Notes: generated from the letters alone by a model not told the origin. 64,000 bases of DNA from Balanoglossus misakiensis (GCA_040954595.2 CM082582.2:3952303-4016302), one strand, 5' to 3'. Counted from the stretch's first letter, positions 3,039-57,600 are shown. Translations and numbers: made by a program.

Positions 3039-4303
3039 TGGGTGTCTCAAAACACATTGTGCGACAAGAAAGTGCTAGTCGCACTTTGAGGGAAATGCTA
3101 TCTGCGACCACTAGCACTTTGATTCTGCGACCACTAGCACTTTGATTCTGCGACCACTAGCACTTGCATTCTGCGACCACTAGCACTTTGATTCTGCGAC
3201 CACTAGCACTTGCATTCTACTACAAGATTTTTTATTGGTTGTGTAACTTATGTGCGCAATTAATACCCCATTGACAGTAACGAGGTGTGAACGATTCGAC
3301 AAGGCAACGTCAATGCCCGATGCTTTCCCGGCCGATCCCAAGTTCGTCACGTTGATAAGTGCGGCAGTCATTGATCGAGTTAACAAAGCAAATGCCCCGG
3401 CCGTTGCGTCGCCTTTCCGTACTGTTTGTACAAACATGCAACCACAACTGTACATGAAAAAACTAGCTGCGTATTGCTCTCAGACTAAAACATCAATGCA
3501 ATGAGAAAACGTTGATAAAACATTATTTATATAGACAGAATAAAGGAAAAAGTTTATTAACGTAAGTACTGTACTCGATCGTATCGGCATCTTTAACACG
3601 CAAAGGTCACGGGTTCATGTGGGCGCGCACAACACTTAACTGCACTCATGCTACAGAAATACACACAGTCGTTTTTCAACATAAAAATATTACCTTTATT
3701 TAGACATAAAACCGCTAAAGGCAAGTATACCGATCACGGAAGCAAGTAGTCAGATTCATCGAGCGATTCATCTGATGAGTGCAGCGCGACCTTGACCATA
3801 TTCTACGATGTCAAAGGTCAGGTCATTCAAAAATGGCGATTGTGTTGTCATCGCATCGCAAATGCGCATTTCGCGCTCGTTTAATAGCTAGTTTTACTCA
3901 GCTACAAAAATCGACAAACCAGAGTTCTTATTAAAGTCGGTGTAAAATCAGACTTGGATATGATCTAGTAGAAATGAAAGGTCAGTATTTAACCAAACGG
4001 AAATTACGTGGATCGTGTATTTTGTACATGACACGAGTACAACATATCAAGTTATCATCTTGAAAGAAAGTTGAATGTCGCGATACTTTCAAAACCCCTC
4101 GATCGATACGACTGTGCTTTTTGAAACTGGTTTTTATTCAAGCTTGTTGGTCGCAAATGATCACAGCGCACAATGCAAGTACCAGTGGTCGCAGAATCAA
4201 AGTGCTAGTGGTCGCAGAATCAAAGTGCTAGTGGTCGCAGATAGCATTTCCCTCAAAGTGCGACTAGCACTTTCTTGTCGCACAATGTGTTTTGAGACAC
4301 CCG
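3039..4303. mobile_element. Non-autonomous Tc1/mariner-like DNA transposon with long TIRs containing 23-bp tandem subrepeats
   Basis: TA at 3037-3038 and 4304-4305; near-perfect inverted repeat of over 110 bp (GGGTGTCTCAAAACACATTGTGCGAC...); 5 copies of TCTGCGACCACTAGCACTTTGAT on the left, about 3 inverted on the right; no transposase ORF. Confidence 0.88.
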
Positions 4304-18600: not shown

Positions 18601-21600
18601 ACACAATGCAGTTAGAAACTTAAACAGCGGATTGAAAGTGATGGATGAACAAGAACCAGTACGGAACGCTACAAGGAGGAGGAGACGACAGAGGTAGGAT
18701 GTGATGGCTCAGTGTTCGGCATCAGAGCAATCTACACACTTGATGAGTGTCGAACAAAAAGTCAGCAAAATGAAAACATTGATGAGTACATTGTGCATCT
18801 ACAATGTGCATCTTAAGTTAGTTGAATAGAACACAACCCTGTATGATAAACCTCAACTCAACTGTCAATTTTGAATTTTTTTCCTAGCTGAAGAAAATTC
18901 AATCTACTGTAAAATGGGAAATTTGCAAACGATAAATTTTCGCGAAATACATAAGAGCAAAAATTACCGGAAGAATAAAAAGTCACGTAAAATGTTTTTC
19001 GGATATACATGTAACGATGCAGTGAAATACGAGAACACAGAAATTAATCCTCACATAACAGTTGCCGATGTAGATATCGCAAAAAATATCCTGTTGCGAA
19101 AATTTCCCGTTTTACAGGATATGATTTTTGGAATAATAGTTGACATGACAATGTAGACCTTGTTTTTTTGAGAGAAGTGTGTTGATCCGCCCTTTTCTTT
19201 TCTATTTTAAGAATTCTTTCAAGAAGATCACGCGCACAAGCAAATGACCATCACACGGTCTCTCTAACACTCCCTGTTTTCCTAACTGTGTTACAGAAGC
19301 AGGGCTTCTTCATCCGACCTGGAGACCTCCTTGGTCGTTTCACCAACAATCCCTCAAGCAACTATAGAAACAACAGTAACAGAAAAGCCAGTGGATCCAC
19401 CACCACCACCAAGCTCAGCAGAACGCAGAAATCCCAACATCTCAAATTTGATGGAAAGTTTCCGACAGAGGAAGGAACGGCTGCAGGCAGCTCGCAATCA
19501 AATCAGTCTGGAAGACTCACCATCATCTCGTCTCAATGGTTCCATCAGGACTCCACCTCAACAGCCTGTGCCAGTTCCTAGTAAGTGATACGTCACAGTC
19601 TTTCAGTTTTCAGATATGAGAACTTGCTCTCACTTCCAGGTTGCTACAAAATTTCCCGAGACCCAACATCCATGTTATGTATTCACAGACAAATATTGTG
19701 ATATCCATAGAAATTTCAGGTGAATGATATCCTTCAGTCTTCTCTAACGGCCACTTCAAAATCTTCAAGTTCAGTGTTTCCCATTGTGCATTTGAGTCGT
19801 TCTGTTTCGGCATACAAATGCACATTACCTTTCGCAGACTTGGCCGCCTATTAAGAAACATCGATCATGGCACCAAATTGACACAGTTGTAAAATAAAAG
19901 GTGTCAAGGTGTAGATATTATGACATGAATTGCATCAGAACCTTGACTTTGCCCTTCCATATGATTAAATCAAATGTTTGGTGTCGGGGTCTGCAAACTG
20001 CATCTTCAAAACTGTATAGTTAAGTTGTTTAGTTATTTGATATGGACACGGTGCTGACTAGATGATTTATGACAACTGAAGGTAGGTAATGTTAGGTAGC
20101 ATGACATTTACACACACTGTAGGTGTCCGTAGACTTCATATGTGAACTATCCCCTTGAGCTGTCTCCTTTTCTATCCTGTTGTAATGTATGTTATGTATC
20201 TGTTCTGTTGTACGCGTCCTGTTACTGCTTATCACACACATTGCTTTTACCAGTCTTAAATGAATTACTGTAACACCAGTCACATATAGTTACAGCTTTC
20301 CTCTGTGACTTCATTCATACACAGTACATTGGTCACAGTAAGTTCTCTGTGACACTCATGTGTCACAAATTTTGTCAATACAGTATCTGTCAGCCATCAG
20401 TGTTTATGGTTGGGTTATTGAAGTTTGTTATAACCTAACATCTCTGTCTTCGCCACAGAATATTTTCATATAAACCTCATCTGAGGAAAAATTCCTATTT
20501 GGCAAAAATGGAATTCCAAGCATTGCATATGGTTTGCCATTAACAATAGAATTCAAACTCTATTTTGTCAGCCCAACCTCTCATGCTTGTTGGCACCTGT
20601 GCTTGTGCATTTTTGTTATGGATATGACAGTTTGCCAACTTTCATGCTGTTAAGTTCAGTTAGATCTTTGGCATTCTTGTACCTGGTTCAGTGCTGACTA
20701 GATAGGAATGGCATACATGGACATGAACCTTGTATGTGTATATATTGCCATTATAATACTGAACAATGCTGACTTGTTCGCGATGTCAGTCATTTGTACT
20801 TTATTGTTTTTGACACAATGGAGGAAAGTCACACCAAGACTTCTGAATTATCCTATGCTTAATTCTTACATATAATCCCGTGATATCTGTCTTTGTTTGA
20901 CATAATCCTTTACAAATGTTTTTCGTGGAGCAGTGCAACTTCAAGCTGTAGGTTGATGACGTAGAACAGGGGTGATACTGTATGTATTTTTGATCTGTCC
21001 TGGTCTACGTCACACAGGTGGTGATATTGGGCCAGTTCATGTGATAAATTTCTGTGTTCAATACCAATGATAAAGTATTTTCCTGTTGCCATGAGCAGTC
21101 TCACATTTGCCTCTGTGTGTTGGTACAGTTAAACTTGTCTTTCACCTTTCCCCATTGTTTTACTGTGATCTGTGTATTTCCCGTTTATAATGTGATGACG
21201 TGTCTTGTGCATTTCCCTTTGATGTGATGGCGTGTCTGTTGCTGCTAGGTGTTGCTTTTGCTATCAATCATATTTCATCACACGTACCTTGCAACCATTA
21301 GATACAGATGATGACACAGTCACTGCTGAGGACGAAGCCATGTCAGTTGAACCGCAAACCACAGAAGATGTAGTTTCACCCGAAGAAGTAACGCACAGTC
21401 CTCAGCTATCAGGAAAAGGTGACTTAGAAACAGTTTTGGAACAGAAATCACACACAGCGTGTGATCCAATAGATGAAATTTCCTCTGAAGTACCACAGGA
21501 TGGAGACAGCAGCATTGTCGTGGGGAATTACAAAGCTGATAAGGATGAAACGCCATCATGTATTCGGGATGAGACTTGCAGCAGTCTGGTGGAGGAGAGT

Positions 21601-24600
21601 GTTGATGTAGTCTCGCAGTCTGTAGACCAGTCAGAAGTGAAAGGGGCTGAGGAGACCCTGGTATCTGATAGAGAAGTGGAGAGTGGGCCACGCACTGGTC
21701 TGGTGTCTGAAGATAGGTCACCATTAGATCACCAGAGAGATGAGAAAGACATGTCAGGGACAACAGAGGCTCCAGTTGATGGTTGTATTGAAGAAGCATT
21801 GTCTGCCGAGCAACCACCAGGCCTAACTTCAACTGCTGAAACTCAGCTTGAATTGGCGTCTGACCAACCATCTGATGATCAGAGTGTTGAGATCAACTTG
21901 TCAGGGACTCTAGAGATGTCACCTGCATGTGATAGTGTTGAATTAGTTTGTGAAGAGTTGCTGCAAGATGATGGGGTCTTGATAGGGATACCCACTGCTG
22001 ATGACAGTACTGTCAAAATACAGGAGATGTCAAGTTCAACACAACCAGCAGATTATGTATCACTAGATATCATGCACTCAGAGTGTCATGGTGAGAATAA
22101 TGATGAGGTGCAGACGTTGGATTCTCAAGATATTGCGGTAGAGTCCTCTGAAGGTGCTTTGGATGTTGAACAAGAATGTAAGAGTTTTGTGACAGGGGAA
22201 GGAACTGAAGGGGGTATAGTTTTAGCCAGTGGCGATGATGTCACTGGGACCAGTGGTGATGATGTCATTGAGACCAGTGGTGATGATGTCACTGGGACCT
22301 GTAAAGATGGTGTCATTGGGCCCAGTGGGGATGATGTCACTGTGACCAGTGGTGATGATGTCATTGCGACCAGTGGTGATGATGTCACTGTGACCTGTGA
22401 AGATGATGTCATTGGGACCAGTGGGGATGATGTCATTGCGAACAGTGGTGATGATGTCACTGTGACCAGTGGTGATGATGTCATTGGGACCGGTGGTGAT
22501 GATGTCACTGAAACCTGTGGTGATGATGTCACTGGAACCAGTGGTGATTATGTCACTGAAACCTGTGAAGATGATGTCACTGGAACCAGTGGCGATGATG
22601 TCACTGAGACCTGTCTTGATGTCAATGATGTCAGAAGTGGTGGTGACTTGGAGAAGTGTATTGATGAGATATCTGATAAAGATTCACCTGAAGACCTGGG
22701 AAAGCCAATGGAGCAGTCAGCTGCAATGAATGCCACAGTCTGTGAGGTGGCAGATGATGAAACAGAAACTGAACAAGAAGGCAGACATATTAAATCAGAT
22801 GTTACCATGGTTACAGACGAGTGGGATGTTAATAAAGATGGCGGTGATGATGATGTATTTGAGTGTGAGACTGGCACAGCTGATACAGGAGTAACAGATA
22901 ACAAAGATTTTAATGAAAGTGAGTAGTGTGCCAAGTAACAAAAGTGTGCAGTGAGTGTCTAAGCATTAGCTATGTAGAACTAACATAAACAGAGTTAAGT
23001 TTGAGTCTTTAGTTGTTGAAAGATTTGCCTGGAGTTGCTACTTACAGGGTTGGAGTGATTTTATTGAACTTTTAAAGGCCTGTGTAGTATTGATTTGTTT
23101 TCCAGTCAAAGCATGAAATGAAACAGAGAGTAGTACAAATCCAGTACCTCCAATGCATCTCATGCGATGCCGTCATGCATCTGGTCATCACAGGACGTCT
23201 TTTTTACTCTGTAACTAACTGTGGTGATACCTCATGTCTGGTGTTTTCTGTGTGCATTTTTATTTGCCATCTTGCATGACTAACGCATCTTTCAAGTTTA
23301 ATACAGTGAAAGCAGTCATTACAGACACCTCTCTATTAAGGACAGACTTTCTGTTCCCATAGGTGTCCTTAAAGGTATACGGTCACCAAGGGAAAATTAG
23401 CTGTAGTTACCATGGCAAATTGAGATCTAGCCAATCGCAGATTTTCAGTGGGTGGCACACGCGAAAAAAAGAGCGCCACCGTATGTTCTTTAGAACGCTC
23501 AAGTACGCCATTTCAGCCATATATGGGTACATGTATAAATATGAAAATTGGAGGTGACTGTATACCTTTAATAGACAGGTTTCACTGTACTTCATAATCT
23601 TTCAGCATGTCATTCACTTTCTTCTTCTTTTCATGGTTATTCACCTTTCCTTTATTTTATTTTGGTTACATTTCATTTCAAAGCTGATGATGAGACCTTT
23701 GATTTCTCATGGCTGTATGCTAGTACCTACTCAGATTCTATGCCCACATCATCTGAAGTAGATATAACCACTGAGAGTGAGTATTGGAATCTGACAACAA
23801 TGGTTTCTCCCATGCATGAAAAGCCAGTTTTGTAACTATGCATATCATTGTACATGAAGCATCATCAAAATTTAGCAATTCACCAACTCAAATTTATCAC
23901 TTTTGTTTCTTCAGTGCAAGAGTTGTACATTTGTAGGTTTCCTGCTCTTCTACATAATCATTGTACATACCATATGAACATATAGGTTACGGTTTTACTC
24001 CCTCAAAATTAAATGAACCATGTAGACTTTTTTGCAGTTTTGTTGTGATTATAAATTTATTTTTGTTAATTATAGTTTCCTTTATTTTCCCAGTTTGCTT
24101 TGTGTGATTCTAGCTTCAAGATCCAAAATCCAAAATTATTTCAAATCAACGGCAATAACCATTCACATTCCATTCCACACTTCTTTTGCTGATTCACAAC
24201 TGTTTGAGTTGAAGTTGCATTTTATTTTGTTTTGTTTTGCCTAGCTTTCTTTCTTTTGTTTGTTGTTTATATTGTTTTTAATTTGCCACTTTTATTTCAA
24301 AGATGACAGTTTGACATCTACAACTCCATCAAGCCTCATTGGAGACGTGCACCATGACACTACACCCCATCTTGACTCTCACCATTCAGGTATTCATAAC
24401 GCCTTTCACTTTTTCATTACATTTTCCATTTTCATCATCATCTCATAACATTTTCTATCAACCTCTGGTCTGTCCTGTCTGTGAAAATCCAAGAAATGCA
24501 TTGCTGGTAATACCTTCTTCATACTTTGTTCTTGTAGCAACTCCAGACAGACAAGTTTTTGCGAAAGATTTACGACAATATTGAGTCAATATTTTGTATT

Positions 24601-27600
24601 AAACTAAAACACTTTGGATATTTCATTGTAAAGTCAAACCTGTGTATAGTGGCCAGTCAAGGGACTCTCCTAACTGGCTTTTATAGACAGGTGGTTTTTT
24701 ATAGACAGTTCAATGAACGTTCATGTAAATTGCACAAGGACTGCAATAAAGTGGCCACTATATAGAGGTGGCCACTATCACAGGTTACATAGTTTTGCTG
24801 CATTCAACAATACATTATTGCTTTTATATTTTGAATACAAGATGAGGAAACACAGGCAATTACTGCATTAGATGATACAGATGAATTACTTATACCATCA
24901 TGGCTGCATACACAACCTGAATGTACTCTTGATAAACTTAAAGATGGCCGTCAACGTGAGTATTGTCAGCTGAGCAACCACCTCCCTAATTGACACAGGA
25001 TTTGCCGTGCAAGTGTTGTCATGACCATCAAACTAATTTCTTCCCTGAAGTTGTTCCCACTGAGTGATGTTTCCCTACATCCCTATATACCTCTCCTTTC
25101 CTTGCATTGCACTGCAGTCAAAAGTCAATACTATATACGTGTAGTATACCAGACTGCTTCCTTTATTCACACTGTCTTCTAAGAAGGCAGCATACATGCA
25201 TTATGTATTAAGCGCACAAACACAGTGAAACTGAATAAAACATATTTCCATCTCTGTATTTTTTGTGTTTCTATTAAAGACAGCACAGTGTGGGTTTTCT
25301 ATATCAGATGTACTGATGTACAGTCATATCTACTGTACATGTACCATACTTTCAAATGAGTGGGCATTGTTGCCATGATCTTTTGACTAACTACTAAAAT
25401 TGACTGCCATATGCAGTTGTTAGCATTACTGCAGGTGAAAAGTATTCAGGCAGTTTTTGATACTGCGGAGTTTGATCGTTGCATATCTGTCTTACCATTA
25501 AATGATTAAATCTTCGATTTAGGGTAAATGTTATGCATTCATTTTCAGTGTATAGCCAGTGACTGTTTGAAGCTGTAATTTGTGAAATAATCTGCAGTAT
25601 CGTAGTATGATCAGATGATAATGTACCAGTTTATTTTTTCATGGGGGGGGGGGGGGGGGTTATGAAAGGATCAAGCATTGGATGCTGGTACTTGTAGGAA
25701 TGTATGGTTTGGAGTTTGTGGGCTGACTTTCAGAGAGCAATGTACCGATAGCTCACATAGCTACACAGCTTTGTAGATCTGCATTCAATGTAAGCATAGT
25801 TTGATGTAACCTGAATACGAATACTGAATATGAAAAATCTACACTGTAAAGTGACACTATTTGAGAATGGGGTGCTGGTTCTTTGATCTTATATAAGGGG
25901 TGGAGTGCATGTTTTTTGAAACTGTATATGAATATGATGGGTGGATCTATGGAATACTTTTAGCAAGAATTTCAAGTGATATGCTGGTTGGTTGATACCG
26001 ACATTGAAACTTAGGGTGGAGTGAAGAATGCTAAAGTATGAATCTGGATATTGAGAAAACAGTGACGATATCAAGTGGTGATATCTGTTTGGAGTCAATA
26101 GATATGGTCGTACACTTGCTGTACATGGGATATTCTAGAACATGGTTTCCATCTTCAGAGGAAGAGTTGCCATTTTTGAGTTGAGAAAACTCTGACCTCC
26201 GTGTACTATTCCACTGCATTTTGTAATGTCATATGCAAACATAGTATGTTATGTCTACTTTATACAAAACACTTCCTCAATGTTCTGTGTAGTGACTTCA
26301 TTTACAGATTTAGCTTCTCATACGTGTGCGGTCAAATTGTGATCAAATTTGATTTTCACTGTGAGTGTTTGACCCAGTCTATCATTCTCATGTCTGTGGA
26401 TCAAACAAACCTTCTACATACAACTGAGGGCTGCTAGCAATTACATCATAGTCCACATTATCTTTGTTACCTCCTTGGCTCTTCAAAATCTTTTCCTACT
26501 CTTTTTGCTTTAACTACTTTCTAAATGTGTTCTTCTATACCTGTCTTCTAGTTATCTCAACAACAGTGGTTGAAGAAACGTTTGACCAAGATAACACTCA
26601 CAATGTCGCTGATGTTGTCTTTACTGCTAAACTTCCTTCAACATCACCTCCTCTGCGTAGTAAGTATCTCTCCTCTCTTCTCTTTGTTCCGTTGTCTCAT
26701 CTATTCCTATTCTCGACAGTCTGTTATCATCCCCATGGACTACCTAAATGGAATCCCCCATCCACGAATGACATGCACAACCTGGTGAATTCCATTGGCA
26801 GTAGTGGGGATGAAAGAGCGTTTTGTGTTGTTTACCCTTTTCACTCCCTGTATATAATGTCCATCTTCTGTTTTTGTTTTGAGTCAAATGTGTTCCTGCG
26901 TTGTAACCTAATCCTCTGCTGTTCTCCAATCTTTCTCTGACTCTTTCTTACTATTTCTTTCCTCAACTTGATTTCCTTTTTCCAAGGTGAAGAACCAAGC
27001 ACCTTTTCAAGCCCAGGGGACAACAATCAAGCTGCAACAGAAGGTACTAGAAATATGTGAACACCCTCGGGATTTTCTCTAACTTTTCACTTTCATTTCT
27101 TTTTTATCCTTTTATGTTCCACTCTACATTGTATTAAAGGGACAAAGTCTCTCTCTCGCTGCCCTTTTCCCATTAATTTTATTTGATACAAGACACTGTT
27201 TATATTATTCTACATCTGGATATATAGTGAATCAATGTTCAACCACACACAACTTCCATCCAACTTGTAGACACGAGAGTGAAAAAACTCGCCAAAATGA
27301 ATAATCGGTGTTTATTCATTTTGGCGAGATTTTTACTCTCATATTCTGCAAACGGGATAGAAGTTGTGTAGTCGAACGTTGATTCACTAAAAAATCGACA
27401 TGTAGAATAACATAAACGGTGTCTTTAATCAAATATAATTAATTAAAAAAATGCCTACGAGAGAGAGAGACTTTGTCCCTTTAAGTTTTAATTTTTCTCT
27501 TGCCTGCCATAATGTCAAGTATTCAGACATGACATTGATTTCACAAAATGATTCTGACACCACTGTATCACACAGAATGATCATTAATCCCCCCATCTGA

Positions 27601-30600
27601 TTATTTCATCCTACCTGACTTGCCAATTTTCAGTATTGTTTTATGCAAGAAGGCATGTCTTGGTAACACTCACTTGTACTTTCATGAGAGATTTCGTGAA
27701 GCAAACCCAATACTAACGAAATTGATATTGATGGAGAATGTTGGTACAATTTCCCCCCTTTTTAAAAACCCCCTTACTGGGAAAAAGTCTGCATGCATTG
27801 TTTTGATGCTTTTTTGTGTATTTTGTTGATTGCTTGAAAGCTGGATCTTGGCACTTCTTGTACATTGATGAAGGGGATATCAATGTGCCATATGAAGTGA
27901 ATGTCAAATTAGCCAATGACTGTTGTAGTCATAACTATATCGAGTGTGCTATGATTACAGTGTGTTCACTTGGCATGGAAACAGGAAAGATCATAGCGTG
28001 ACAGTTATAAATGTCATCATGGTACTAAACTTTGACTCTCCATTTTGTCTGGTTATTACCCGACTGATCAAACCAACAACAGCTAGGCACAGTTCACATT
28101 AACACAAGTATGTTTTAGCACACGGCTCTTTGCAGAGCATATTTGTCATAATGATAAACTTGAAAACATGTTCTTCATTTAAATGACTCATTTCAGAGTA
28201 CATTGTTCATTAAAATTTCCTTCATTACCTTTTTAATGAAACCTTTGTAATTATCATATATAAACTGAAACACAGTGAGATTGTTTTCAGCTATATTTTT
28301 TAAATTTTGAGTTGTGACTGTATGCATGTTTATCTTAAACTGGTAACTCGATCATCCATACTATATCTTAAAATTGCTGCATAAGTACCTTTAGAAAACA
28401 ATGAGAATCTTCTGTCAGACTCAGCGTGATACAAATTCTTTTTGGTAGACGTTATTGATCAGTTTCTCTGCTGCTACTTTTCTTGAAGCCAATAATAAAA
28501 TAAATGAGAAGAAATCTAAGAGTTCAGTCTCCAAAGATGACCAAGATGTCTTGCAGTTTCTTCGATTTGGAGTAACAGAATCTACACCTGAAATAAGTGA
28601 GTTCTGTTCAAAAATGGTCACTTGCACGGTGGAGACTATACAAAGTACACTTGGTGTATGAACTTCTTAACATAAATATACATAATTGTACAATGGTTGT
28701 ATTCTAAACATTTCATGTTAATCAGCCATAGGTAGATTAGGACAATATTAACTAAAACTAGAATAATGAAGTACCTGTATTAGTAATGCAAAATCATAGA
28801 TAAACCAATAAAAGCTTTGTGAACTAGATGAATGAACTAATGTACATCATAGATAAACTAACAAACCTCTATGAATGTTACAGTAAAGAGAAAATTGTAG
28901 TTCTCAGAACAAAATGGTTTTTAGAGGTGAAATAGTGTACAGCTTGATGGAGTAACTGTCAATATTATCACATTGAAAAGGAACGTTTCTGCACTATATT
29001 AGTGTTGAAGTGAAAATATGAGAAATAACATAGTTCTGTACTGGTACTCACAACCTATAATACTTTGAAGTATGCATGGTGATGATGTGAAAATTAATTG
29101 GTTTATCAGCATGAGTTGAAAAACCTTAGAAATGTGTTATAATGTAGCATGACATATAATACAGACCCCAAATCTGCATTTTGATAACAATAAAGCATTC
29201 ATAAGTTGTTATAACTTCTGAATCTGAAGGAATTTTTTCGCATATGTTTTGACATGTTACTCGATTTAAATCACAATCAAGGTTCCTCTTCAAGTTCAAC
29301 TCCGAGAAGTAATCTCACCCCGTCTGATGAAATCGTTGATCATTCCAATGTCGATGATAAGGGAGGTCATGTCCCTAGTGAGTAAATATTTCAAACATAC
29401 TTTCAGAAGTTGACTTATAACATGTTTTTTATTCTCTTCTTCATGTCATGTGCAGACACATCATGACATCATGAGACCGAACAAGTACATGTAATATAAA
29501 ACTCATTCCAGTATTTGTTATTATCTCTTCTTGCTCTATTGCATCTTTTGGTTGCTTTCAGTTGCAGCTAAAGGCTGTGGTTTTCACTTCAATTTCTGTA
29601 ACTCTGGACTTCTTGGCATCGTATCAAAACAAACCACCACTTGAGATAAACTACATGGAGTGCTACCAGAATTGATCGAAAATCCTTCATCAAAGTCTTG
29701 GTACTTGTTGCGGACTTTTTATCTCTTTCATTCCCTTGTTCTCATATCTCATCCCACTTTTTCTGTTTCTCTTCATTTCTTCTCCTTCACCTTCTGTCAC
29801 TCAAAGACCTCCGCGACATTAGTTTGGAACAAACAGGAAAGGAAATGAAAGACAGTCATTCCAGAGTAACATTAGATGATGACGTACCAAACCATGAGAA
29901 AAAAGACCTAACAATAACTGTAGTAGATGAAGACAGTAATTCACCCATGAGAAATTCACTTTCTGGAATGGCTACAAAAGACATTTCCTTGAGCAATAGA
30001 CTGAAAGACTTGCTCCCTTCTATCAGTATTGAAGATGAAGTTTTTGTTGATGATAAAAGTGAAACAGAATCTGAGGAACCTGAAAGTCGCAGGTTAAGAC
30101 TAAACTTTGTCAGTCTGAGAACAGTTACATTGAGTTCCTCAGGCAGTAGTCCTTCGACACCAACCGGTGCGCAGGAAATGCTTTTTCCCAGTGCAACAAA
30201 CACTGACCAGATCCACGCATCTTCTGATGATTGTCATACGCAAGACAAGAATACTGATGAGAGAAACTTTTCTATCAGGGAACAGTCTTATGAAAAAGAG
30301 GAGGGTTATAAAATGGATGGAAATGGATTTTCCGCACAGAAACATCCAACGGAAGACACAGATGACAGTGATGTTATGAAGCTTCTGTCCTGTGGGTTGG
30401 AGAACATTTCATCCATCGAGTCCGAAACGGCTATTCAAGATCAACCCGTATCCTCCACCACTTTGGAAGCTGAAGAAGCAGTACCTGAAAATGTTGTTAC
30501 TTTGAAATGGGAAAATAAAACCCCAGAGACTAGTTCAGATGCTAAAAAACATTCTAAAGATGAAAAGCGGATTACACCCAGAGCCAGTCGTTCAAGTCTA

Positions 30601-45600: not shown

Positions 45601-48600
45601 TCGGTCAAAACGAAAGTCTGCAACCGGTAGTCCTTCCATTTTAAGAAGCCTCAGATTATCACCATACTCATTGCCCAGTCGTTTTATATTGTGTTGTGAG
45701 TACGCGGTTTTGCACGTCCAGTTATGGCAACTGAATCCTTGCATGGTCTAAATTCTAACATTTCTGTTACAGGTCTCCGCATGAAGTCATGATTTGAAGT
45801 CTTGTTTTCCAGATATATAGCAATTGTGACATTGTCAGTCATATTTTTTAATTATAAACGTCTCTATATTCACTCTTTCAGATGATGAAAATGATCTGAT
45901 GTCATTGCTTGCTTCAGGTGATTCCCACAAATCAGCCCAAGAACAACAAAAAGGTAAGTCTTTAATATAAAATTTAGGGTTTTAAAAACCAATCATGATT
46001 TAAGATCAAAGGTAATATACGCCATTCCCAGCAGAAAGGGGTCTTATGGGAGTACAATACTTATGACCATAAGACCCCTTCCTGCTTGGGATGGCCCAAT
46101 TATATAAATTGTCGAAATTCTTCTGATTGGTCTAACAAAATATCGACCCATTTTCTTCAATATAAAAATTATCAACCAGTTTTATTTACATAATTGTATG
46201 TCATACCAATAGGAAATTTCTTCAAGTTTAAAGCTCCATTAGCTGTAACTTTACGCTGTGTTTTCAGTATTTTTGTTGTGTGTATCTACTGCAGTTTCTT
46301 TTTCAAATTCCTGATACATGATAAAGAATTGCCCAGAATTTATCTTTCCCTTTAAGACAAATCATATTCTGTTCATTACAGAAAGTTACAGTGCTAGGAT
46401 GAAGCAACAGAGGAGGAGTTATGGGAGATATGCTGACAGAGAAACAGAGATGAGACCAGTTCCTAAAGAAGGTGAGAAAAATTACCATTTGAGTGTGAGT
46501 TGTAACTTGTGCTAAGTATTAGCGTGGGAATCCAGCGACTATTTGAAATCATGCTTTTTGTGTCACTTGTGATCTGCATCGTTTCCATACTACAGCCAAA
46601 CCTGTGTTAGTGGCCACCTCTATATAGTACACACTTTGTTACAATCCCTGTGCAATCGATGTACACGTTGACTGGCCACTATAGACAGGTTTGAGAGTAT
46701 CGCAATTTTTCACATCATGATTGGCAGCAGAGCATACCTTTGTGTTTCGTTTATCCTGACTTTGTCACATTTGTTGATGGTAAAGGTTCCAGATCCCGAC
46801 AACAGAGAAGGAAAGACATATCACCAGCGGTAACAGATGATGATCCGGACAGTAAGTGTCCTCTAGGGCATTGTGACTGTTAGTTATATCACCATCTAAC
46901 ACTGTTACTTACACAGGCATGGAGTTCAAACCATTAATGTCAGTGGCATTTTGTCAACAGGTTCATATGCAGGGAAATACTAATAATTGGTTTTTGAGCT
47001 ATTTATTCTACAGTGCTTGAAATGGAGACCAGTATCTCATTCCTGTGTTAATGGCATATTAGTAAAAAATATAAAATATATTTTTGTGAATAATGCCGAT
47101 TAATACATAAAAGTTTGCAATGCACAGTATGTATAATACACCCATATTCCTTGAATCAGTGAATGCTTTGTTGACATGAGTGATTGCCCCTAGCTTGCAG
47201 CATGAACAGTAAAGGGACCTGAAAACCTTAACACATTTGTCAAACTGACAAACTTTCTTTCTTGAGCCCATATGAGTGAGCACTGCTATCGTATGTCCAA
47301 TATTACTTTTCATTAAAATGCATCCTTCATATGTAGATGCTTTTGCTTTCAACTTTCACTGTCACTTGATTTCTGATGATAACACTGGTTTTAATCCAAG
47401 TCGATGTGAGATATCGGTTATCTCTCCTATGATGCACAGTTTGTCGAAAATTACATTTTGAATGTTGTTTTTTGTGGTAGAGAAGAGTTCATGATTTGAT
47501 TTCATATCAGAATGTCACATCAAATTAACACAATGACGTTGATTTTAAGTACAGTACAATACTATGAAAATGCATAAATTCAAGATAAGAATCACAACAC
47601 AGTGCTTAAAACCATATATTGAGGGTTTGACATTTGGATTATAATCAGTGTTATATCACTTTAATTTATAGTGTGTTTCTTGTATGTGTCTGGCTTCAAA
47701 TGTTTGCCTTCTCTCTCTTGCAAAAGCTGTCACAGTTAAACTACGTCGTGTACGTAGAAGATCCCTTGAAGGAATGTCACCAGAAAGTAAGTTAGTTCAA
47801 GAATGCAATTGGTCAAGTTTTAAAGACTACTTCTATTTTTCAAACAATTTGAAAATTTAACATATTTGCATATTAAAGAGGAGAGTTTTGCATTTCTTGC
47901 CTCTTCAATAACTATTCAGGTTTGCTATTGCTCGATCTAACATGGTTACTCAGCTGTATCAAACAAACAAACAAACAAACAAACAAATAAATAAATAAAT
48001 AAACAAAGTATGCTTTGCAAATTATTTATTTTGCAGAGATGTTCAGTTTCTAGAATAATTGCATTATTGCCATGATATTATTAAACCTATTGAATGCCTA
48101 CAGTTGAAATGCTTTCATGATGAACATTAAAAAAATTGTATTATATCTAGAAAATCCTTTTCTAACATGAGCCACCCTCACATTTCCTACCCAATGATAT
48201 TAAACTAAAGAAAGGATCTCTAGACTTGATAGGAGGTGCTTGACCCTAACTCTTAGCCTTTCCCACTATCCCATAATCGAAGAGATATAGCATCTTCTCA
48301 TGTTTCATGTCATTTTGCTGTATTATGCAATAAACTGCATTTCTGGTATGCTAGGAGATGCGAGCATGAGTCAATCCAAAGCTAAAAGTGAACGCAAGTC
48401 GTCATCTGGGAAAGAGGCAACCCAGCGTAAGTAAAAAATAGTGGCTAAGTGAATGTGTACCCTTAGATGTGATGATCTCAACGTTTTTGTTGAAATTAAC
48501 TCTGGAATTTGCATGTATTTCTATTGACTGCCCACTCATCTGACAAACTATCTTTGTGTCAGTATTCTCATTAAGGTACAAACCAGAAAATCATCATCTC

Positions 48601-51600
48601 TGATGATAGAATCCATTGTCAAAAGCATGTTGTCTTGTACATTCTGACCAAACCACCAAATGCAGAATTTCGTGTAAATATTCCTACATCTAACAAATTC
48701 ATCAATGTGATTCCTCAGTTGGAAAGAAACTAAGTACATGTATTTACATTTGACGTTAACTTGTCCCTTTCAAAAACAATAAATTATAATTATAGCTTTC
48801 CTACAAAGTAGCAGCAGACTTTTGATTTGATCTGTACGAAACTCTGATTGAAATACTAGTAACCTTAGAGAAAATACTGTCACATGGTTTTATCACGTTT
48901 CCTTCTACTTGTGTCTTTCTTTCTTTCCTTCATTCTATCTTTCTCTTTATCTATCACGTTCCTTTCATGCACACTTTGCAATTGTGTGATCACTTTTCTC
49001 ACCTCTTTCTGTGCTGTGTGTGTAAACACTATCCTAGGCTACACTGAGTCTGAGAGTGCGGACAGTGAAACAGAAGTCACTGTTGTTTATACCCAAGGTG
49101 AGATCAAAGCGTTTCCAATATGTCACTCTACTCATACAAACCTGCCCATCATTCTTCTCCAAAATCCCATTGTCAATTTGTCTGGAATTATTCCCGTGTG
49201 CATGAAATTAAAACAAATTTTATGATTGTACTGTTAAACATACTGCATTGCAGTTCACAAGTAACAAAGTTCAAAAATAACTTTCTCAGTGAATTCAAGA
49301 AAACTGTGAAAGCCATTGTTGGCACTGATACTGTTCAAAATATCCCCAAATTCATATTTGACATAATTTAATCATAAAAGGAAATAAAGATATAACTAAA
49401 TACAATGTAGGTACTGTCTTTTCCAAGCTTTGTGCATGTATTAAGAACAGTTGACATAGGTAAGTGTTGTTTCAGTGGTTGATAAGTGTGTCTTCTTTCA
49501 TGTACTTATATTCTGGCCCAAAGTGTGATTTGATTCACACTGTCAGGCATCGTGGTTTCGAATAAAACCCATGAGAATATACTAGCGATTGAAAGATCTC
49601 AGAAAAGACTAGTCTATGGTATTTGCCACATGCCCAGATTGTGTGGAAATCAAGTACTTCACCTGGGCCAGTCTACATGCAGCTTGTAATCTGGTCAATT
49701 TTTAAACCTTTCCACTTTTCAACAGACAAAAGAACGCCAACAGATTACAATGCAAATGTGGCAGGTAAGTTGGGGTGCTGGCAATTCTCAAAAGCATGGC
49801 TCAAATATAAGTCTTTCCCCGATGTACGTTTGATATGGTGACGTAGAGTTACTCGGTCACAACCAGAATAACTAACTCGTGCTTGGACAATTTCTTCTCT
49901 AACCTGGGTCAAAGACAATGTATGGTACCGTGAAGTATGTTTTGCTGTCAATGATCCAAGATGGCCACCAGGCAATCATTTGTAATCAAGACTTTTTCAT
50001 GTTCAGAGCCATGACACATGCCTGAACAGATCTCATTCAAGCTTGGCATATAAGGACAATGTACTATTATGTACATATGCATGTCAATCTGTGTTTATAT
50101 GATATAAAGATCCAATATGGTGGTCTATTACAGCATGCTACCCAGCAGCCATTTTGTTGCAGTCAAGTTATCTCTCAAAACATGCTTGTTGTACACATTT
50201 GAACCTATGCGACTATCCAAGGTTTAATGTGATGTTCATGTCTGCTGTTGCAATGTTATGTTCCTTAACATGTCTAAGGGATAATGTACTACATGTATAT
50301 GTGCATGACAAATATTTGTCAATGATTGTTTTGTGACATGCTCAAATGTAGTACTAGGCTAATTAATACCTTATGAGAACAATTTTCAGAACCATGATGT
50401 CCTCCAGTTTTTATCTCACGGGGACCATGTCATTCCGACAATGACCTGTTCACTATCGCTTTGCTTTGCTCAAACGCAGGCAATGGATGGGCTTTGCATA
50501 GCCTGATCTTTACATGTAGACAAATCTGAGCATAACCAAAAGGTTCCCCTTGCTTGCTACAACTGCCATGATTAACAAACACTCACCACCATGGATGTTC
50601 CACCTGTACCTGAATAGCTGCCCAAGTCCAAGGTCATTTTTTTTTAATTTTCCTTTAGCCTGAGTCATCAGATTTGCTGAAGACGTCAGCATGATGATCT
50701 TATTTCTCATTTCATTTAAATCAGTGGCTGATTCCACCAATAACTTTACTACAGGACTGAGTTATTCTATTCTTGATGGAAACATGGCAGTCTTAAAACG
50801 TAGTTCATGTCCTAAACCCTGCCCTTAAAGTGGTGCCTTCAATACTTCCAATCCCATGGAAGTGTGGCCCACTACTAGGGAAATCATGGCAGTAACATTT
50901 CATGAATTACTCTAGTTGAATGTACCCCATCGCTTTTGCTACCTGCATCGTATCCTAGACCATGCCGACTGTCGCCGTGACAACAGGATTGCTTTCTTGT
51001 CTCTGTCAGAGCAGCGCATAACTTGCATGGCTGTTTCAACATCGGCTGTCAATCCAATGTATCCATTGCAGTGTCCTGACTGTATCTCTTCTGTCTCTGA
51101 CTGCTTTCTGTGTTTCTGCTAACATCTTTCTCTTCTTTTTCCTTCTGTGTATCTGTTATTCTGCTCACCCTCTCTTTGCTGTCTGTGTGTCTGTCTTATG
51201 TGGCTCTTCACATGAAGATGATTTAGAACCCACTGACGTGTTGTTTTACATTGACACAGCCGACTCCTATCCCGAGGATGGTAACACGCTTCCTTCACAC
51301 TCTTCTCTCATCCTTTCTTTCACTTTGTCTTTTCTCTCATTTGAAAACAAAAATCCACTGCATTGTCTGATCTGTTGTGTTATATTCTCTCTAAAGTTAA
51401 TTTTGAAGATCAATCTTCTCTGATGTCAGATGAGCAAGCCAGAAATCGCTCTTCAGGTACTTCCTCCCATTCTGCATGCAGCTAGGCTCTTGTCTTCTGT
51501 GGCATGAAGTCTCTTTTGGAATTTGGAAGCTACGTCTTTTTTGAAAATTAAAATTTTACGTTCAACTGTACTCTTGAAAATTGAATGTATTTAAAATTTT

Positions 51601-54600
51601 TCAACTCCTCATGCTACAAATTAGATTGGACACAAAGGTCTTTAGTCTTGAATAGCTTTTATAAACTTCCACCTCATCTGCCTGTATTCTCTCTCTCTTC
51701 TACAAAAGCCAAAGATCAAACCCTTGTTAAAAACAAAGGTGCCCTTCCAAATTTATGGTCGCCATCGACGCCAACAACTCACTACCCAGAAGACTGGCCA
51801 GAAGATTCCTTCGACATGCAGCTGGAACTGCAACAGAAACAACAACAGCAACTTCTTGAAGAAAACAAGATTCTGAAACAGAAAATGAAAGCTTTGACTT
51901 CGGCCCAGAAAGATCAACTGCAGTTGGTGCCCAAACAGTTACTGCAGCTGTCTCCAGAGGAACAGCTGCAGTTGGTGCCCAAGGAATTGTTGCAGTCACT
52001 TTCCGAGGACGAACTGCGCTTGCTGACCACTGGTCACTTGCAGTTGGTACCCAAGGAGATGTTGCAGGCCATCTCGGAAGACAAGTTGCAGTCGTTGTCC
52101 GAAGAAGAGATGCAGTTGGTTCCAAGGGAAGTGTTGGAGTCCATCCCCAAGGACAAACTACAGAAGACTGCAGAGTCCTCCTCTTCCAAATCCGATGTTC
52201 AGATCCCCTCGGAACTGATCTCACAGCTGCCTCCACAGATCATTGCCAAACTTCCCCCGCAGATCAAAAACAAAATAGATCCAGCGATTCTAGCCCAGCT
52301 ACCACCGCCAGAAATCTTAGAACAACTCCCGTCAACATCAGAGCTCGTCAAAGAACACATACACTTGCACTCCCAGCCAGTTCCTCCAAAGGTCAAGGGT
52401 CAACTGGACTACGACAAACTGCATTATCAAAAGCCATTGCCTCCAACACCAGAGAGTATTCCAGTGAAGTATATCTCTGATGAAAGAAGCGCCAAATATT
52501 ACAGTCCACTACCTCCCACTCCACCAAGCTCTCGGCAACACGCGCCTCTACCAGCAACTCCTGATATGTCAGCAACTGACAGTGACACTAGTGAACAACT
52601 GAACAGGCCAATCTATCAGCCGTCTGCAATGTTTGCTGCTACAGATGGGACTCCCTATCCCCAGTATCAATCACTCCAATCTGACGACACGGAGCGGACG
52701 ATACGAGGCCAATCCCCAGGCCAGTTGCCGCCGGTGATGAACTCTGGAAACACGGAACAGTCGACGCAGAACGTGGATGTCAGAGCTGTGCAGGGCCAGG
52801 TGCCTGTGGTCATGCCTGAAATCATTGTGGTCAACAGGCCCAATAGAAGATTAATTCCTGTCTCTGATGTTGAAGATGATGAAGCGGCGTCCAACCAACA
52901 AGGAGCAATTCTACCCAGAAATCTCCCCCTGCTGCCCAATACTCCAGCTCTTCTTCTACAAGGTATTTGTTGTCTTGCCAACAACGCTGCATGACCTGGG
53001 TGATGAAAAGCTACAAATAGGACTTTGTTGCATTGCAAAGTACTAACAATGCTCTCTATTCTGCTGCATGTAAATCAATAGAAGAGAGACAATCTGAATC
53101 ACCATCGTGGAGATGGTTTGTCTGTGCCAGAAACAAGTAGTGCTTTGTTTCAATTAATGCAGAAAATGAAGCCAGCATACTTGAATGCAAGAATCAAATG
53201 TATTTGTCACAGTCATACATTACAATGTAGTGTGATGCAATGTGACAAAATTTAACGTTCTACCATGCATGTGGTGCTGAGGCTGCCCACAGAATGTGAT
53301 GTACTGTGATGCATGTCCTCTTGTTGAAATGTGCCATTTTCTAATGATGCATGTGATACAAGCCAGATGAAGAAAATGTGATGTGATGCATTGTGAGAAA
53401 CTAGAGGGAGATGGCAACTTACAGTATGCAAAGAGGAAACCCCTTTCTACAGTACACATGGCAAGTTTTAAAGAAAGGACATACAATCATTAGTGCTTGG
53501 AAGAGCACTATTGGGAATATAAAAATAGCCATGTACTGTATGCATGCATGCATGGAAAGATGACAACTGCAGGCTTCATTCACTGCTTTGCATTTCGGGA
53601 AATAACTTTCATTGCACCTTGCAAGTATGTGCGAGTGGGACATATATTGAAACAATTCTCCCGCCTTCCTTCTCTCTCTCTTCTCTTTCCATCTCTGTCT
53701 CAGATCCTGAGTTAATGCAGCTTCCAAGACCTACTTTAGAAACATTACTTTATCTCTACAAAGGTACATTTTTTGTTTGTCTCATTGAATTTGTTGGCAT
53801 GTATTTGCTGTGGTGCAACTAGACTGTACAAGAATTGCCATCATGGTCAAGTGTGATCATTTTCTACAATTTGGTGTAGATAGTAGTGATGTCCATAACA
53901 GAACAAGGTAGTGAGACTTGTACATCCTTGTCCCTTGTAGAGCACCTCTCTACAGACAATACAAGCCTAATGCCCAATGAATACTCCACACCATTGAAAC
54001 TTACATGTACCTGTTCACATCTCTGAAATGAAAACTGAACAGCCTGTACAGTTTCAGTTCTGATGTAGATTCCCCCACCCTCTCCTCTCTTAGTATACAA
54101 TGTACATTGTACCTCTGCTAGCAACAGAAGATCAGTAGCCTTTATGGAACCCATCCTTTTGTTACGTACATTTCAACAGTTTGCCTGTCCATTCCAATAC
54201 TTCTACACAAAAGTACATTAGAGTACATGTGTCTTGGTTTTCTCTGGATTATGAGGATCTTTATACACTTTTCTGAAACTTAAAAATAAACTTAGTCATC
54301 CTTTAGAACAACCCCCATTCCCCATTTGTGTTTGCAACCGGCCATGTAAACATTGTATGTTGACTGATGAACTTTATGGATGGGCTTTGGATGGGTATAA
54401 TGATCAAGCTATCAAAGAATAAAAACATTACATGACTACATATTACATCAGATATGCTTTGTAAATTGATATGTGTTTTAATTTTGGCCATTAGAGTATC
54501 TGAGAGAGGAAGAATTGCCTGATTCAGAAGGTAGGTGGACTGTGGCCGTGGTCTTGCTATACTGCATTGCTGTGTACTTGCAGGATAGTCAAATAGTTAA

Positions 54601-57600
54601 TTGTGCCTGCGTTAGTACATGTAGTCATAATACATTAGAGACATTGAGAATGTCACTGACAGTAAGTATTGCACTAACAAGTCCCTTCGAATTCCTATCC
54701 AGCAGCGCAAGAGACTGATATTATTACTTCCACAGGTCATCCATTGCAATGGAATGTGCTTGTATGTCCACAAGGGACAGTGCCTTCATACACATTTTGT
54801 ATAACTAACATGACAATAAGTTTATTTTTAGGAAATGTTACAGCATGGCAACCGTATTTCACTATAGTGAAATAATGTATGATACTAAATCTTCTCCATT
54901 AAAAACAGCCATTAGAGTTGCAGCTCACAGGAATTGAATCCCTGCCAAACAAACGTCATTGCAAGTCTTTGTCTTTTTGATCCACAGCTTAATCTTCCCA
55001 GATCCCAGCATGCATTGCTTCAATCTCGCCTTCTGCACCAACCATATTCCCAGCATGCTTCATTCCAATCTTTTCTTGTCAAATTCTTCTATCTTCTCTG
55101 TGTGATTCTCTCTCTTTCTGTGTTGTTGGCTTTTCTCTTTTCTCTGATTTCACACTTCTTAGAAGAGCTAGAGGAAGAAGAAATTTCTGATATTCTCACT
55201 GAACTTGTCACCATGAAGAGTAAGTCTTTGCTCATCTCCTGGTTCTCTCATCTCTTTCGCTCGACGCACCTGCTCTCTCTCTGATACATATCACATGCTT
55301 TCTTCACCACACCTCACTATTTTAACTGTGGATTCATTTATTTTTAGTTCATGAAAACGGGGGGTACATCTACCATGTCAGTTTTTCACTCACCATCTCT
55401 CATATTTGCCGTACTTTGCAGAGTTGAACGTTGCAAGAGGACGGAATAGAAATCATTTGGAAGCACCGTCAGAGAAAGAGATTCAGAATGAAGGTGTGAA
55501 GGAGAAGGATTCATGCTCCATTTCTAGTTCCTCGTCAACCAATAGTAGTCTCCGAGATGAAGACAGGAAATCTCCATCACCTTCTTGTATATCATCTGCA
55601 TCAACTGCCTCCAGTGAGAGTACAGAGGGGTCATCATCATCATCATCATCTGGTATAAAGCAAATTTTTAAAAACTCTAGAACTTAGAAGTAACTTTTTA
55701 AAACCTTTATAAAGCAAATTTTTGAAATCTCTACAACCAAATTTTTGACAAGCGGGAACAAAAACTCTGTTTTCCTAACTGTTCCATTAGTATGCATCAG
55801 ATATTTTTGGCAATTTTGTGATAATTTTCATTTAATAGTTTGACATGCATACCTGCATCCTTTGTATGTATTAGCCAATCATTCCGTTGAGTGTCTGCAT
55901 GATGGAAGTGTAAACTGACAACAGAATGGGTGTTTTTTTTTCTCTCACTATAATAGTTGCTCCCTTTGTTATTTCAGCATTTACAAAAAGCATCAAGCCA
56001 TCTAGTGGAATGCAAGATCCCAGGAGACGACCCATCATGGAGACTGACTTGGAAGCACAGCTTGATAGACCAGACACGAAAGAAACAGAACAAGAAAGTC
56101 GTGCTGATGACTCAGAGGGCCAGTTATTATCCAACGACAAAAGACTATTCTTTTCAATGATGGGTGGTTCTAAGACGAAAAGTCAGGATGAAGATGAGAC
56201 AGAGCCCTCGAAAGAAGCTAGACCACTTCCCACAAGGAGGATTTCTCAGTGCCTGTCGGCTACAGACACCCTGGGGGATAGGATCGACAGCTTACAGAGC
56301 AGTTCTGCCGAAGTTACACGAACGGTTCAAGATAATTTAGACAATACCGGTGCAGTTGTGTCTGCGCACGAGAGATTGACTCAATCAAGCGGCGATGAGA
56401 GTAGTGCCAAGGGACCTGTTGGACCCACAGGGGACAAAAGTGGTGTTATTGGACAAGCAATGGAGGGACTTCAAAGTTCATCCAAGCCATCGGTTAGTAG
56501 TGCGGCCGAGCCAAGCAAGGCCGCTGCACCCGTTCAACCGAAGAGAGAGGTGGACGAACGCTGGGAACAGCTGATGAAATCTACAAATAGAGCACTGAAA
56601 ATTAAAGACCTGGATTTCACCGATCTTGCTCCCTCGGACGACGAGGATATTCTCGAACCCAAAGTAACGGCTGTTGAAGCTAACTTTGTGGGAATCCCCC
56701 CGCCCCCGCCCCCTCCCCCACCTTTGGGTGGCCCCCCTCCTCCCCCAATGCCTCCGCCGTTGTTTGGCATTCCCCCTCCCCCGCCGTTATTCGGACAGAC
56801 CACCATAGACGGAAGGGCACCACCACCCGGAATGCCACCCCCGCCCGGAATGGGACGAGGACCATCTGAAGGCACCCTCAAGAAATCCAAAAAGACACTC
56901 AGACTGTTCTGGAAGGAAGTCAGAAACAACGACTCCTTCGTGCCTCAGAAGGGTTCTAAAAAGACAATATGGAGCTCGTTAGATCCTGTCGATTTGGATA
57001 CCTCCAAACTTGAACATCTGTTTGAATCTAGAACCAAAGAACTTTCGTTTAAGGTGAGTGTTTTACAAACTCTCAGAATGTACTCCAGTCAAACCTGTGT
57101 TAGTGGTCACCTCTATATAGCAGCCACTTTGTTACAGTTCCTGTGCAATGTGCATGTGTAATAACTAACTTGTATATAAAGGCCATCTCTCTATAAAGTC
57201 AGTTTATTCTTAGTTATTTGGATGTGTTCCACTATCAGTGTATATGAGACTCTGTTTCTGGAAATACAAATCGATAGGATTGCCAGTAGAGAATGGCAGG
57301 TCATATGATAAATTGTGATGTACATTTGTTGACTGCGAAATTTTTATGATTCAAGTGTGAAGGTAGTGACAGTTTTCGTCAATGGAAAGATCACGTTTCA
57401 GGTGTTCGGAATTTGAAATTTAAAACAAATTGGCTAAAATTGACTCACGAACCTGAGTCACTACCTTAACAACATCTAGTGCGCGCAAACTTTGTACTCA
57501 AAATGTAGCTAATTTTGTCAGATGAATATTGAACTAGACGTACGTACGACGTAGGCTGAAAGGAGTTTGATGGAATTTTTGTTATGAATGTGTCAAAAAT

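Follow-up and report, generated by a model that had tools for sequence, protein, structure and literature searches.

A candidate array of about 45 frame-symmetric cassette exons in the FH3-FH1 linker of an FHOD formin from Balanoglossus misakiensis

Can the linker of a formin be assembled from dozens of optional exons? The question is raised by a stretch of Balanoglossus misakiensis DNA (GCA_040954595.2 CM082582.2:3952303-4016302), analysed as one window of 64,000 nucleotides (nt), in which an array of open segments at 21302-55652 lies inside a gene of the FHOD formin family. All coordinates are window-relative, all exons are on the plus strand, and the curated array segments are labelled #1 to #45 in 5'-3' order. 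Our preferred reading, with a probability of roughly 0.6, is that these segments are chosen partly in blocks and partly exon by exon, under the control of weak acceptors and RBFOX-type factors, and that they have a targeting role. It builds on the frame symmetry of the segments, a bias toward AAG acceptors, an excess of GCATG downstream, the ordered conservation of about half of the segments, and the differing subsets found in relatives.

The exon at 55978-57053 used as a query retrieved FHOD formins, with a Glandiceps talaboti model as the top match (54% identity) and a runner-up at 42%. Sixteen core exons, from 6619 to the window end, gave a stop-free translation of 1,137 open codons in mixed phases, as the original prediction had stated, and the FH3 and FH2 pieces of the Glandiceps FHOD matched window exons at ~65-92%. 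The FH3 domain (PF24959), the FH1 polyproline and the FH2 domain (PF02181) follow one another in the order of an FHOD, the Pfam domains being called on the Glandiceps protein. The last upstream core exon, at the end of the FH3-proximal region (19297-19580, phase 2-1), and the exon carrying the FH1 polyproline and the start of FH2 (55978-57053, phase 1-0) both face the array in phase 1, as claimed. A DAD-core-like stretch lies at the window end, and the GBD and the C-terminal tail fall beyond the window. Judged from its sequence, the locus is an FHOD formin gene with a putative exon array in the FH3-FH1 linker. The FH3-to-FH2 span is 741 residues in the core-only model and 4,039 with all segments included, compared to 433-1,054 in 108 measurable non-ambulacrarian FHODs (first search; proteins of at most 2,000 residues). 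The all-in model is open throughout its 4,435 codons.

The segments were curated from AG..GT scans and reading by eye. Every one of the 45 (9,894 nt in total) has a length divisible by three (3n) and is open in phase 1; three are large (1,617, 3,987 and 1,254 nt), and the pyrimidine-tract score is above zero in 36 of them, in line with the earlier statement that most have a tract. Two weak extra candidates of 111 nt (45585-45695) and 27 nt (53884-53910, called on frame only) bring the set to 47 segments and ~10,030 nt. The ~47 stop-free 3n segments of phase 1-1 that had been predicted are thus recovered as 45 well-defined and two weak ones, and the predicted total of 10,029 nt is matched closely, if not exactly. 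The shortest intron in the array is 111 nt. A stop codon arises at only 6 of the 1,081 ordered junctions, all from #24, the sole segment with a terminal T, which bears out the claim that nearly any subset stays in frame. The weakest calls are the acceptor of #1, segments #8, #12, #14, #36 and #37, and the two extras; the basis of all these calls is frame and donor only.

In a blind scan, all AG/GT pairs were scored and the acceptor was picked by its tract score alone, ignoring the frame and the -3 base; six threshold pairs were tried. At the stricter setting (donor score 3.5, acceptor score 2; region 19.6-55.9 kb), 26 of 35 pairs in the array were 3n, compared to 6 of 37 in four pooled controls (Fisher p 1e-6), and 21 of 35 were both 3n and open in phase 1, compared to 2 of 37 (Fisher p 5e-7). 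For the same 35 pairs, the 3n and open counts were 12 in phase 0 and 1 in phase 2. The loosest thresholds gave 36/80 3n and 18/80 open pairs, against 20/61 and 5/61 on the minus strand, an excess that was smaller yet present. The 3n and phase-1 enrichment over controls was thus recovered by blind scoring. In a donor-only test on 41 GTRAGT sites, at least 12 open codons lay upstream of 37 sites in phase 1, 26 in phase 0 and 8 in phase 2; the phase-1 excess had a p of 2e-8, and three control regions were flat. The segments are almost certainly real coding exons in phase 1.

The splice sites of the array carry a signature of their own. An AAG acceptor was found in 30 of the 45 segments but in none of the 16 core exons (p 2e-6), in 13 of the 19 segments supported by Glandiceps (against the same 0/16, p 2e-5), and in 14 of 21 segments of the blind-scan set. 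AAG is dominant across #2-#35, and the final four segments have CAG or TAG. Since AAG acceptors are weak, the segments are probably skipped by default. The donor -1 base is not G in 26 segments, all 26 of which carry GTRAG, and in 12 of the 19 Glandiceps-supported segments (p 0.045). Two other explanations for these acceptors were considered and rejected. Misplaced acceptors do not account for the preference for AAG: in 42 of 45 segments the 20 nt upstream of the acceptor contain no further AG, and Glandiceps-conserved residues precede the next CAG in #19, #20, #31 and #35. Recursive splicing, where AG is followed by GT, does not fit either, a GT start being present in 9 of 45 segments and 3 of 16 core exons. 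No description of AAG acceptors as a cassette signature was found among the literature matches listed.

Motif excess was assessed 7-150 nt downstream of the segments against 300 dinucleotide shuffles. GCATG occurred 26 times, compared to 7.3 +/- 2.6 in the shuffles (3.6-fold, reached by none of the 300), it followed 19 of the 45 segments, and its peak lay within the first 50 nt. Upstream of the segments the excess was far smaller (9 vs 4.8), and after core exons there was none (3 vs 2.3). CTAAC, the core of the QKI site, was also more frequent downstream (12 vs 4.8), and QKI is said in a preprint to act at weak donors. RBFOX sites downstream of an exon are activating. The array has the downstream GCATG excess of RBFOX-activated exons, and RBFOX is a candidate regulator on that ground. 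According to extracts of PMC8742874, (U)GCAUG is the binding site of RBFOX proteins in both vertebrates and flies, and an exon of Fhos is under the control of fly Rbfox1. In-frame alternative donors at 37767, 42522, 45917, 55493 and 55613 (in #15, #25, #32 and #45) would add length variants.

Conservation was examined with three Glandiceps talaboti FHOD models of 2,459, 2,383 and 1,977 residues. When each segment was matched singly to the linker of Glandiceps X1 against shuffles, 19 of the 45 matched in perfect order (Kendall tau 1.0, collinearity p 2e-17). The strongest identities were 19/19 for #42, 24/25 for #20 and 18/19 for #19, while #41 scored 789 with a p limited by 30 shuffles. Model P0222, the lone match to part of the Glandiceps linker when 1.84 billion representatives were searched without a profile, adds #9 (408 of 1,117 aligned residues identical), #25 and, marginally, #5, so that homology supports 21 segments solidly and one marginally. 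P0222 matches to #7 and #15, which were out of order, and an anchored match of #40, which overlaps other exons, were not counted. P0222 lacks the GBD and FH3 and starts in array-type sequence; it may be one part of a split model, or else represent an isoform without FH3, which would not be subject to autoinhibition.

FHODs of 3,461-5,000 residues fell into six clusters. In three giant echinoderm FHODs the extra length lies in the linker, with a span of 3,168-3,611, and these annotated giant-linker isoforms agree with the idea of a giant isoform in the original prediction. The joining of segments to FH1 and FH2 as FHOD exons, which it had also assumed, is seen in the gene models of relatives. 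Segment #45 is present in all four acorn-worm-like models and in both crinoids and is, given its presence in every relative checked, probably constitutive.

The models of relatives differ in what they include. Glandiceps X3 lacks X1 residues 472-612 and 623-963, corresponding to #13-20 and #22-30, and keeps the 14-codon #21; its breakpoints coincide with predicted exon borders. In P0222, #18 comes directly after #13, and #45 after #34, where Glandiceps has #15-17 and #35-44, and these gaps could be skipping, loss or mis-annotation. Among 15 listed isoforms (of 16 members) of Apostichopus there are 13 patterns over 5 linker blocks, and among 15 listed isoforms (of 19 members) of Anneissia 10 patterns over 8 blocks. 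At least 19 segments co-occur in one Glandiceps model. Inclusion of the segments is very probably optional, and we infer that free exon-by-exon combinatorial use may occur in B. misakiensis. The combinatorial proposal stands insofar as subsets are frame-safe and relatives use different ones, but the shortest Glandiceps model looks more block-wise than free. Direct splicing from 19580 to 55978, also proposed, would give a normal-sized span, but each of the four acorn-worm-like models retains part of the array; with no model that skips all of it and #45 always present, this splice is possible but undocumented.

In the mechanism that we propose, ~45 optional exons would be skipped by default through their weak AAG acceptors, and RBFOX-type factors bound to downstream GCAUG would switch them on, partly blockwise and partly singly. 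Inclusion would lengthen the FH3-to-FH2 span from less than 1,500 to ~4,000 residues. The added chain would be acidic and likely disordered, with 0-10 copies of an amphipathic helix motif. The linker would then set the docking site of the formin in muscle (or neurons) and its reach, leaving catalysis unchanged, as proposed for the vertebrate cardiac FHOD3 insert.

Several observations weigh against this reading. Over all 45 segments the donor -1 bias is not significant (26/45 vs 4/15 in the core, p 0.07). The control CATGC, the reverse complement, is mildly raised downstream (13 vs 7.6), and 26 of the 45 segments have no downstream GCATG. For 23 of the 45, including most of #1-12, no significant homologue was found, and the basis of the call is splice signals and frame. 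Anchored tests gave 3 of 48 at p 0.02, of which one looks like chance. The optional blocks of echinoderms, except #45 and the helix motif, are not collinear homologues of array segments. The evidence for optional use comes from relatives' gene models: RefSeq X isoforms are computed, so that combinations of distant parts may have been chained together without having been observed, P0222 is a model without FH3, and a segment missing from a relative's model may reflect exon loss rather than skipping.

A possible alternative is that the exons are used in a few coordinated blocks, giving for example a muscle giant, a single short form and one or two of medium length, with the symmetry recording stepwise exon gain. 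Symmetric exons are those that can be gained without harm, Glandiceps has just three models, and two long deletions (141 and 341 residues) set X3 apart from X1. Mouse Fhod3 likewise loses exons 11 and 12 jointly, according to extracts of PMC3324543. However, X3 retains the lone #21 between the two skipped blocks, and individual blocks of 14-35 residues are missing from echinoderm models in numerous combinations, which favours the mixed block and single-exon choice over blocks alone.

A more speculative and rather doubtful extension is that AAG is itself a regulatory code, by which a tissue state tolerant of A at -3, together with RBFOX or QKI, would open dozens of exons and tune the tether length and motif valency. 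If so, exons might open at once or in a graded manner, the tether would reach up to 3,300 residues, and the locus would be a length-and-valency dial for muscle actin assembly, the tuned helix motif being undescribed and ambulacrarian-wide. On the preferred reading, the small insert in muscle forms of human FHOD3, a gene linked to cardiomyopathy, would be left over from, or run parallel to, a much larger tunable linker in the chordates' sister group. With the array, the part played by weak AAG acceptors and RBFOX sites in exon inclusion could be tested at a single compact locus, and it draws attention to a short motif that is both repeated and conserved.

It is unlikely that the 5' array (#1-12) belongs to other transcripts, either FH2-less ones ending in #1 or #9 or FH3-less ones from an internal promoter. 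These segments do appear in no Glandiceps model, P0222 begins in array-type sequence without FH3, the frames of #1 and #9 continue past their donors to stops at ~22924 and ~33895, and extracts of PMC8742874 report an alternative short C-terminus in fly Fhos. Nevertheless, P0222 runs from #9 through #13 to FH2, #1 and #9 have phase-1 GTGAGT donors with no A(A/T)TAAA in the next introns, and in echinoderm models FH3 and FH2 are separated by a giant linker rich in the motif. It is more improbable still that every segment is a constitutive exon and a giant FHOD is what the gene always makes: the all-in model is free of stops and #45 is in all relatives checked, but the models of relatives differ by exact exon-sized deletions and the array acceptors are systematically weaker than those of the core. 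The early worry about selection by eye still applies to ~6-10 single calls, some of the 45 having poor splice scores and no homologue, but an artefact of this kind is refuted for the array as a whole by the blind tests (p at most 1e-6) and the collinear conservation.

The peptide encoded by the array is acidic and of low complexity, with E, S and D making up 35% and net charges of -123 for #1 and -216 for #9. No folded domain was detected: a Pfam search of the three large exons gave no family above the cut-off, and searches with part of #9 gave no match in the PDB and no usable match in the Atlas. A 24-nt tandem repeat at 22226-22624 inside #1 encodes ~17 copies of an 8-residue acidic unit. 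Segment #41 contains a Leu/Gln-rich helical repeat (51895-52159, spacing 24-72 nt) that is also present in Glandiceps and matches no Pfam family above the cut-off.

The array contains 10 copies of a helix motif in which acidic residues are followed by hydrophobic ones at positions 1, 2, 4 and 5 and by Gly at 8, compared to a shuffled mean of 0.005. Of these copies #9 holds eight, and #7 and #32 have a single one apiece. P0222 has 9 copies, three echinoderms have 7, 5 and 3, and Glandiceps X1 has 1, while none was found in the other 119 of 120 first-search FHODs or in three decapods. A hidden Markov model built from the window copies agreed, except that it found none in Antedon. The pattern was defined after the copies had been seen, so that the counts are descriptive and the absence elsewhere is the test. 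The motif was rejected as a WH2, in which an amphipathic helix with a final G precedes an LKK-type segment: the helix spacing agrees, but no such segment follows, the flank is acidic, and Pfam found no WH2 at E 1. It was also rejected as a DAD, having no D at position 3 and basic runs after only some copies, whereas the DAD core in extracts of PMC12858348 is phi-M-D-x-L-phi-x-x-phi followed by a polybasic region. Extracts of PMC5047451, on the use of DAD and WH2, contain nothing on the FHOD linker.

The closest known systems are vertebrate FHOD3 and FHOD1, members of the same family with optional in-frame exons in the same disordered FH3-FH1 linker. Vertebrate FHOD3 has a few such exons and ~175 residues, as opposed to ~45 exons and ~3,300 residues here, and the vertebrate FHOD3s checked have no copy of the helix motif; no measurable non-ambulacrarian FHOD approaches the all-in span. 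Extracts of PMC10192571 place the muscle inserts of FHOD1/3 in the disordered linker and report binding of the cardiac one to cMyBP-C, and in extracts of PMC3324543 mouse Fhod3 exons 11-12 are heart-specific, required for localisation and removed together in splicing. The few muscle-type cassette exons attributed to the vertebrate FHOD3 linker by the original prediction are borne out by these extracts.

The proposed likeness to the titin PEVK/I-band region holds in part. Both have many short symmetric in-frame exons and a charged low-complexity product, and skipping of symmetric PEVK exons preserves the frame according to extracts of PMC11578113. In titin, however, repeats of one unit act as a spring, whereas the exons here are mutually unrelated, individually conserved and part of an actin-assembly protein. 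Pairwise DNA similarity between segments is at background, weakly above it for #21-23. The weak likeness of #21, #22 and #23 (41348-41746) may reflect a local exon duplication. Drosophila long Fhos and decapod FHODs are also made giant by low-complexity sequence, but their extension lies N-terminal to FH3 (in the fly from an alternative promoter) and not in the linker. Extracts of PMC5061545 describe the N-terminal extension of fly long Fhos as a flight-muscle localisation cue. The giant decapod FHODs were not taken as support, the extra length being N-terminal in both measurable ones (Cherax and Penaeus), with an FH3-to-FH2 span of 627-660. Decapod models P0146-P0148, P0197 and P0216, of 4,200-4,700 residues and labelled 'serine-rich adhesin' or 'uncharacterized', have N-terminal extensions of 3,100-3,600 residues and resemble an enlarged fly long isoform.

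CD44 variable exons are likewise unrelated, frame-preserving and optional, encode a stalk and are used in blocks and combinations, but they number ~10, and the stalk is extracellular and not cytoskeletal. Dscam clusters share tens of alternative exons in one gene. A Dscam-type mutually exclusive cluster was rejected: such a cluster consists of duplicates of which a single one is chosen, whereas the exons here are not duplicates and one model combines at least 19 of them. Of at least 60 direct-repeat families and 282 inverted pairs, the 20 largest and the 25 longest, respectively, included no selector or docking repeats. Neural microexons are at most 27 nt long with a UGC enhancer near the acceptor. 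Such a programme was also rejected: none of the 45 curated segments is 27 nt or shorter, and TGC near the acceptors occurs at 14.5/kb, compared to an intron background of 15-17/kb. The array would thus function like the FHOD3 and titin systems rather than as a repeat-unit, mutually exclusive or microexon set. No description of such an array or of an ambulacrarian FHOD was found among the literature matches listed. The concept is not new, since frame-symmetric arrays in muscle genes are already known; the searches run turned up neither an array on this scale in a formin nor the AAG signature nor the helix motif.

The individual segments are as follows, with AAG acceptors unless the acceptor is named or described otherwise. 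The 5' part opens with the giant acidic #1 (21302-22918, 1617 nt, TAG; no homologue found). It continues with #2 (23684-23776, 93 nt; blind scan, no homologue), #3 (24303-24389, 87 nt) and #4 (24842-24955, 114 nt), both curated without a significant homologue, #5 (26552-26659, 108 nt, TAG; blind scan, marginal anchored P0222 match with p 0.008), and #6 (26987-27043, 57 nt; curated, no homologue). Next are #7 (28489-28596, 108 nt; blind scan), #8 (29282-29377, 96 nt, weak tract; curated), and the giant acidic #9 (29807-33793, 3987 nt). They are followed by #10 (34327-34380, 54 nt; blind scan), #11 (35011-35061, 51 nt; scan), and #12 (35256-35309, 54 nt; scan, a weak call with an uncertain acceptor).

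Most segments from #13 to #21 match Glandiceps: #13 (35813-35890, 78 nt; X1 and P0222), #15 (37729-37788, 60 nt), #16 (38220-38249, 30 nt, CAG), #17 (38614-38667, 54 nt; 14/17), #18 (39932-39988, 57 nt; also P0222), #19 (40106-40165, 60 nt), #20 (40430-40510, 81 nt; also 22/24 in P0222), and #21 (41348-41389, 42 nt). Segment #14 (36875-37009, 135 nt; scan) is a weak call with an A-rich acceptor. The blind scan contributed #22 (41513-41560, 48 nt), #23 (41696-41746, 51 nt; also curated), #26 (43719-43763, 45 nt, TAG), #27 (44067-44138, 72 nt, TAG, or GAG at 44064; also a later scan) and #29 (44688-44747, 60 nt). Between them lie #24 (41862-41924, 63 nt; curated, P0222 comparison), #25 (42493-42567, 75 nt; P0222 13/18), and #28 (44372-44452, 81 nt; scan).

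Further downstream, #30 (45070-45180, 111 nt) and #34 (46786-46851, 66 nt) match both Glandiceps and P0222, and Glandiceps also matches #31 (45292-45336, 45 nt; 12/14), #35 (47727-47786, 60 nt; 15/19), #38 (49726-49764, 39 nt, CAG), #41 (51709-52962, 1254 nt, with a Pro-rich part; 185/370), #42 (53704-53763, 60 nt, CAG), and #44 (55163-55219, 57 nt, TAG; 13/18). Curated segments include #32 (45882-45953, 72 nt, CAG; P0222 comparison), #33 (46382-46471, 90 nt, CAG) and #43 (54495-54530, 36 nt, TAG), the last two with positional matches that were not significant, and #37 (49038-49097, 60 nt, TAG, weak tract; anchored match p 0.05). Scans gave #36 (48355-48426, 72 nt, TAG, weak tract), #39 (51218-51280, 63 nt), and #40 (51397-51456, 60 nt). 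The array closes with #45 (55422-55652, 231 nt, CAG), matched in Glandiceps, P0222 and both crinoids.

The introns also contain repeats. The intron after #6 has nested inverted repeats at 27134-27484, with 24-nt perfect outer arms and several inner ones, resembling a small non-autonomous transposon. A dispersed repeat is present as two copies of opposite orientation 22 kb apart (24634-24786 and 46599-46694), and shorter inverted pairs lie at 38843-39265 and 37143-37504. Intronic elements seen by eye at ~3030-4300 and 11250-11670 have long inverted ends and internal short tandem repeats and are likely transposon remnants.

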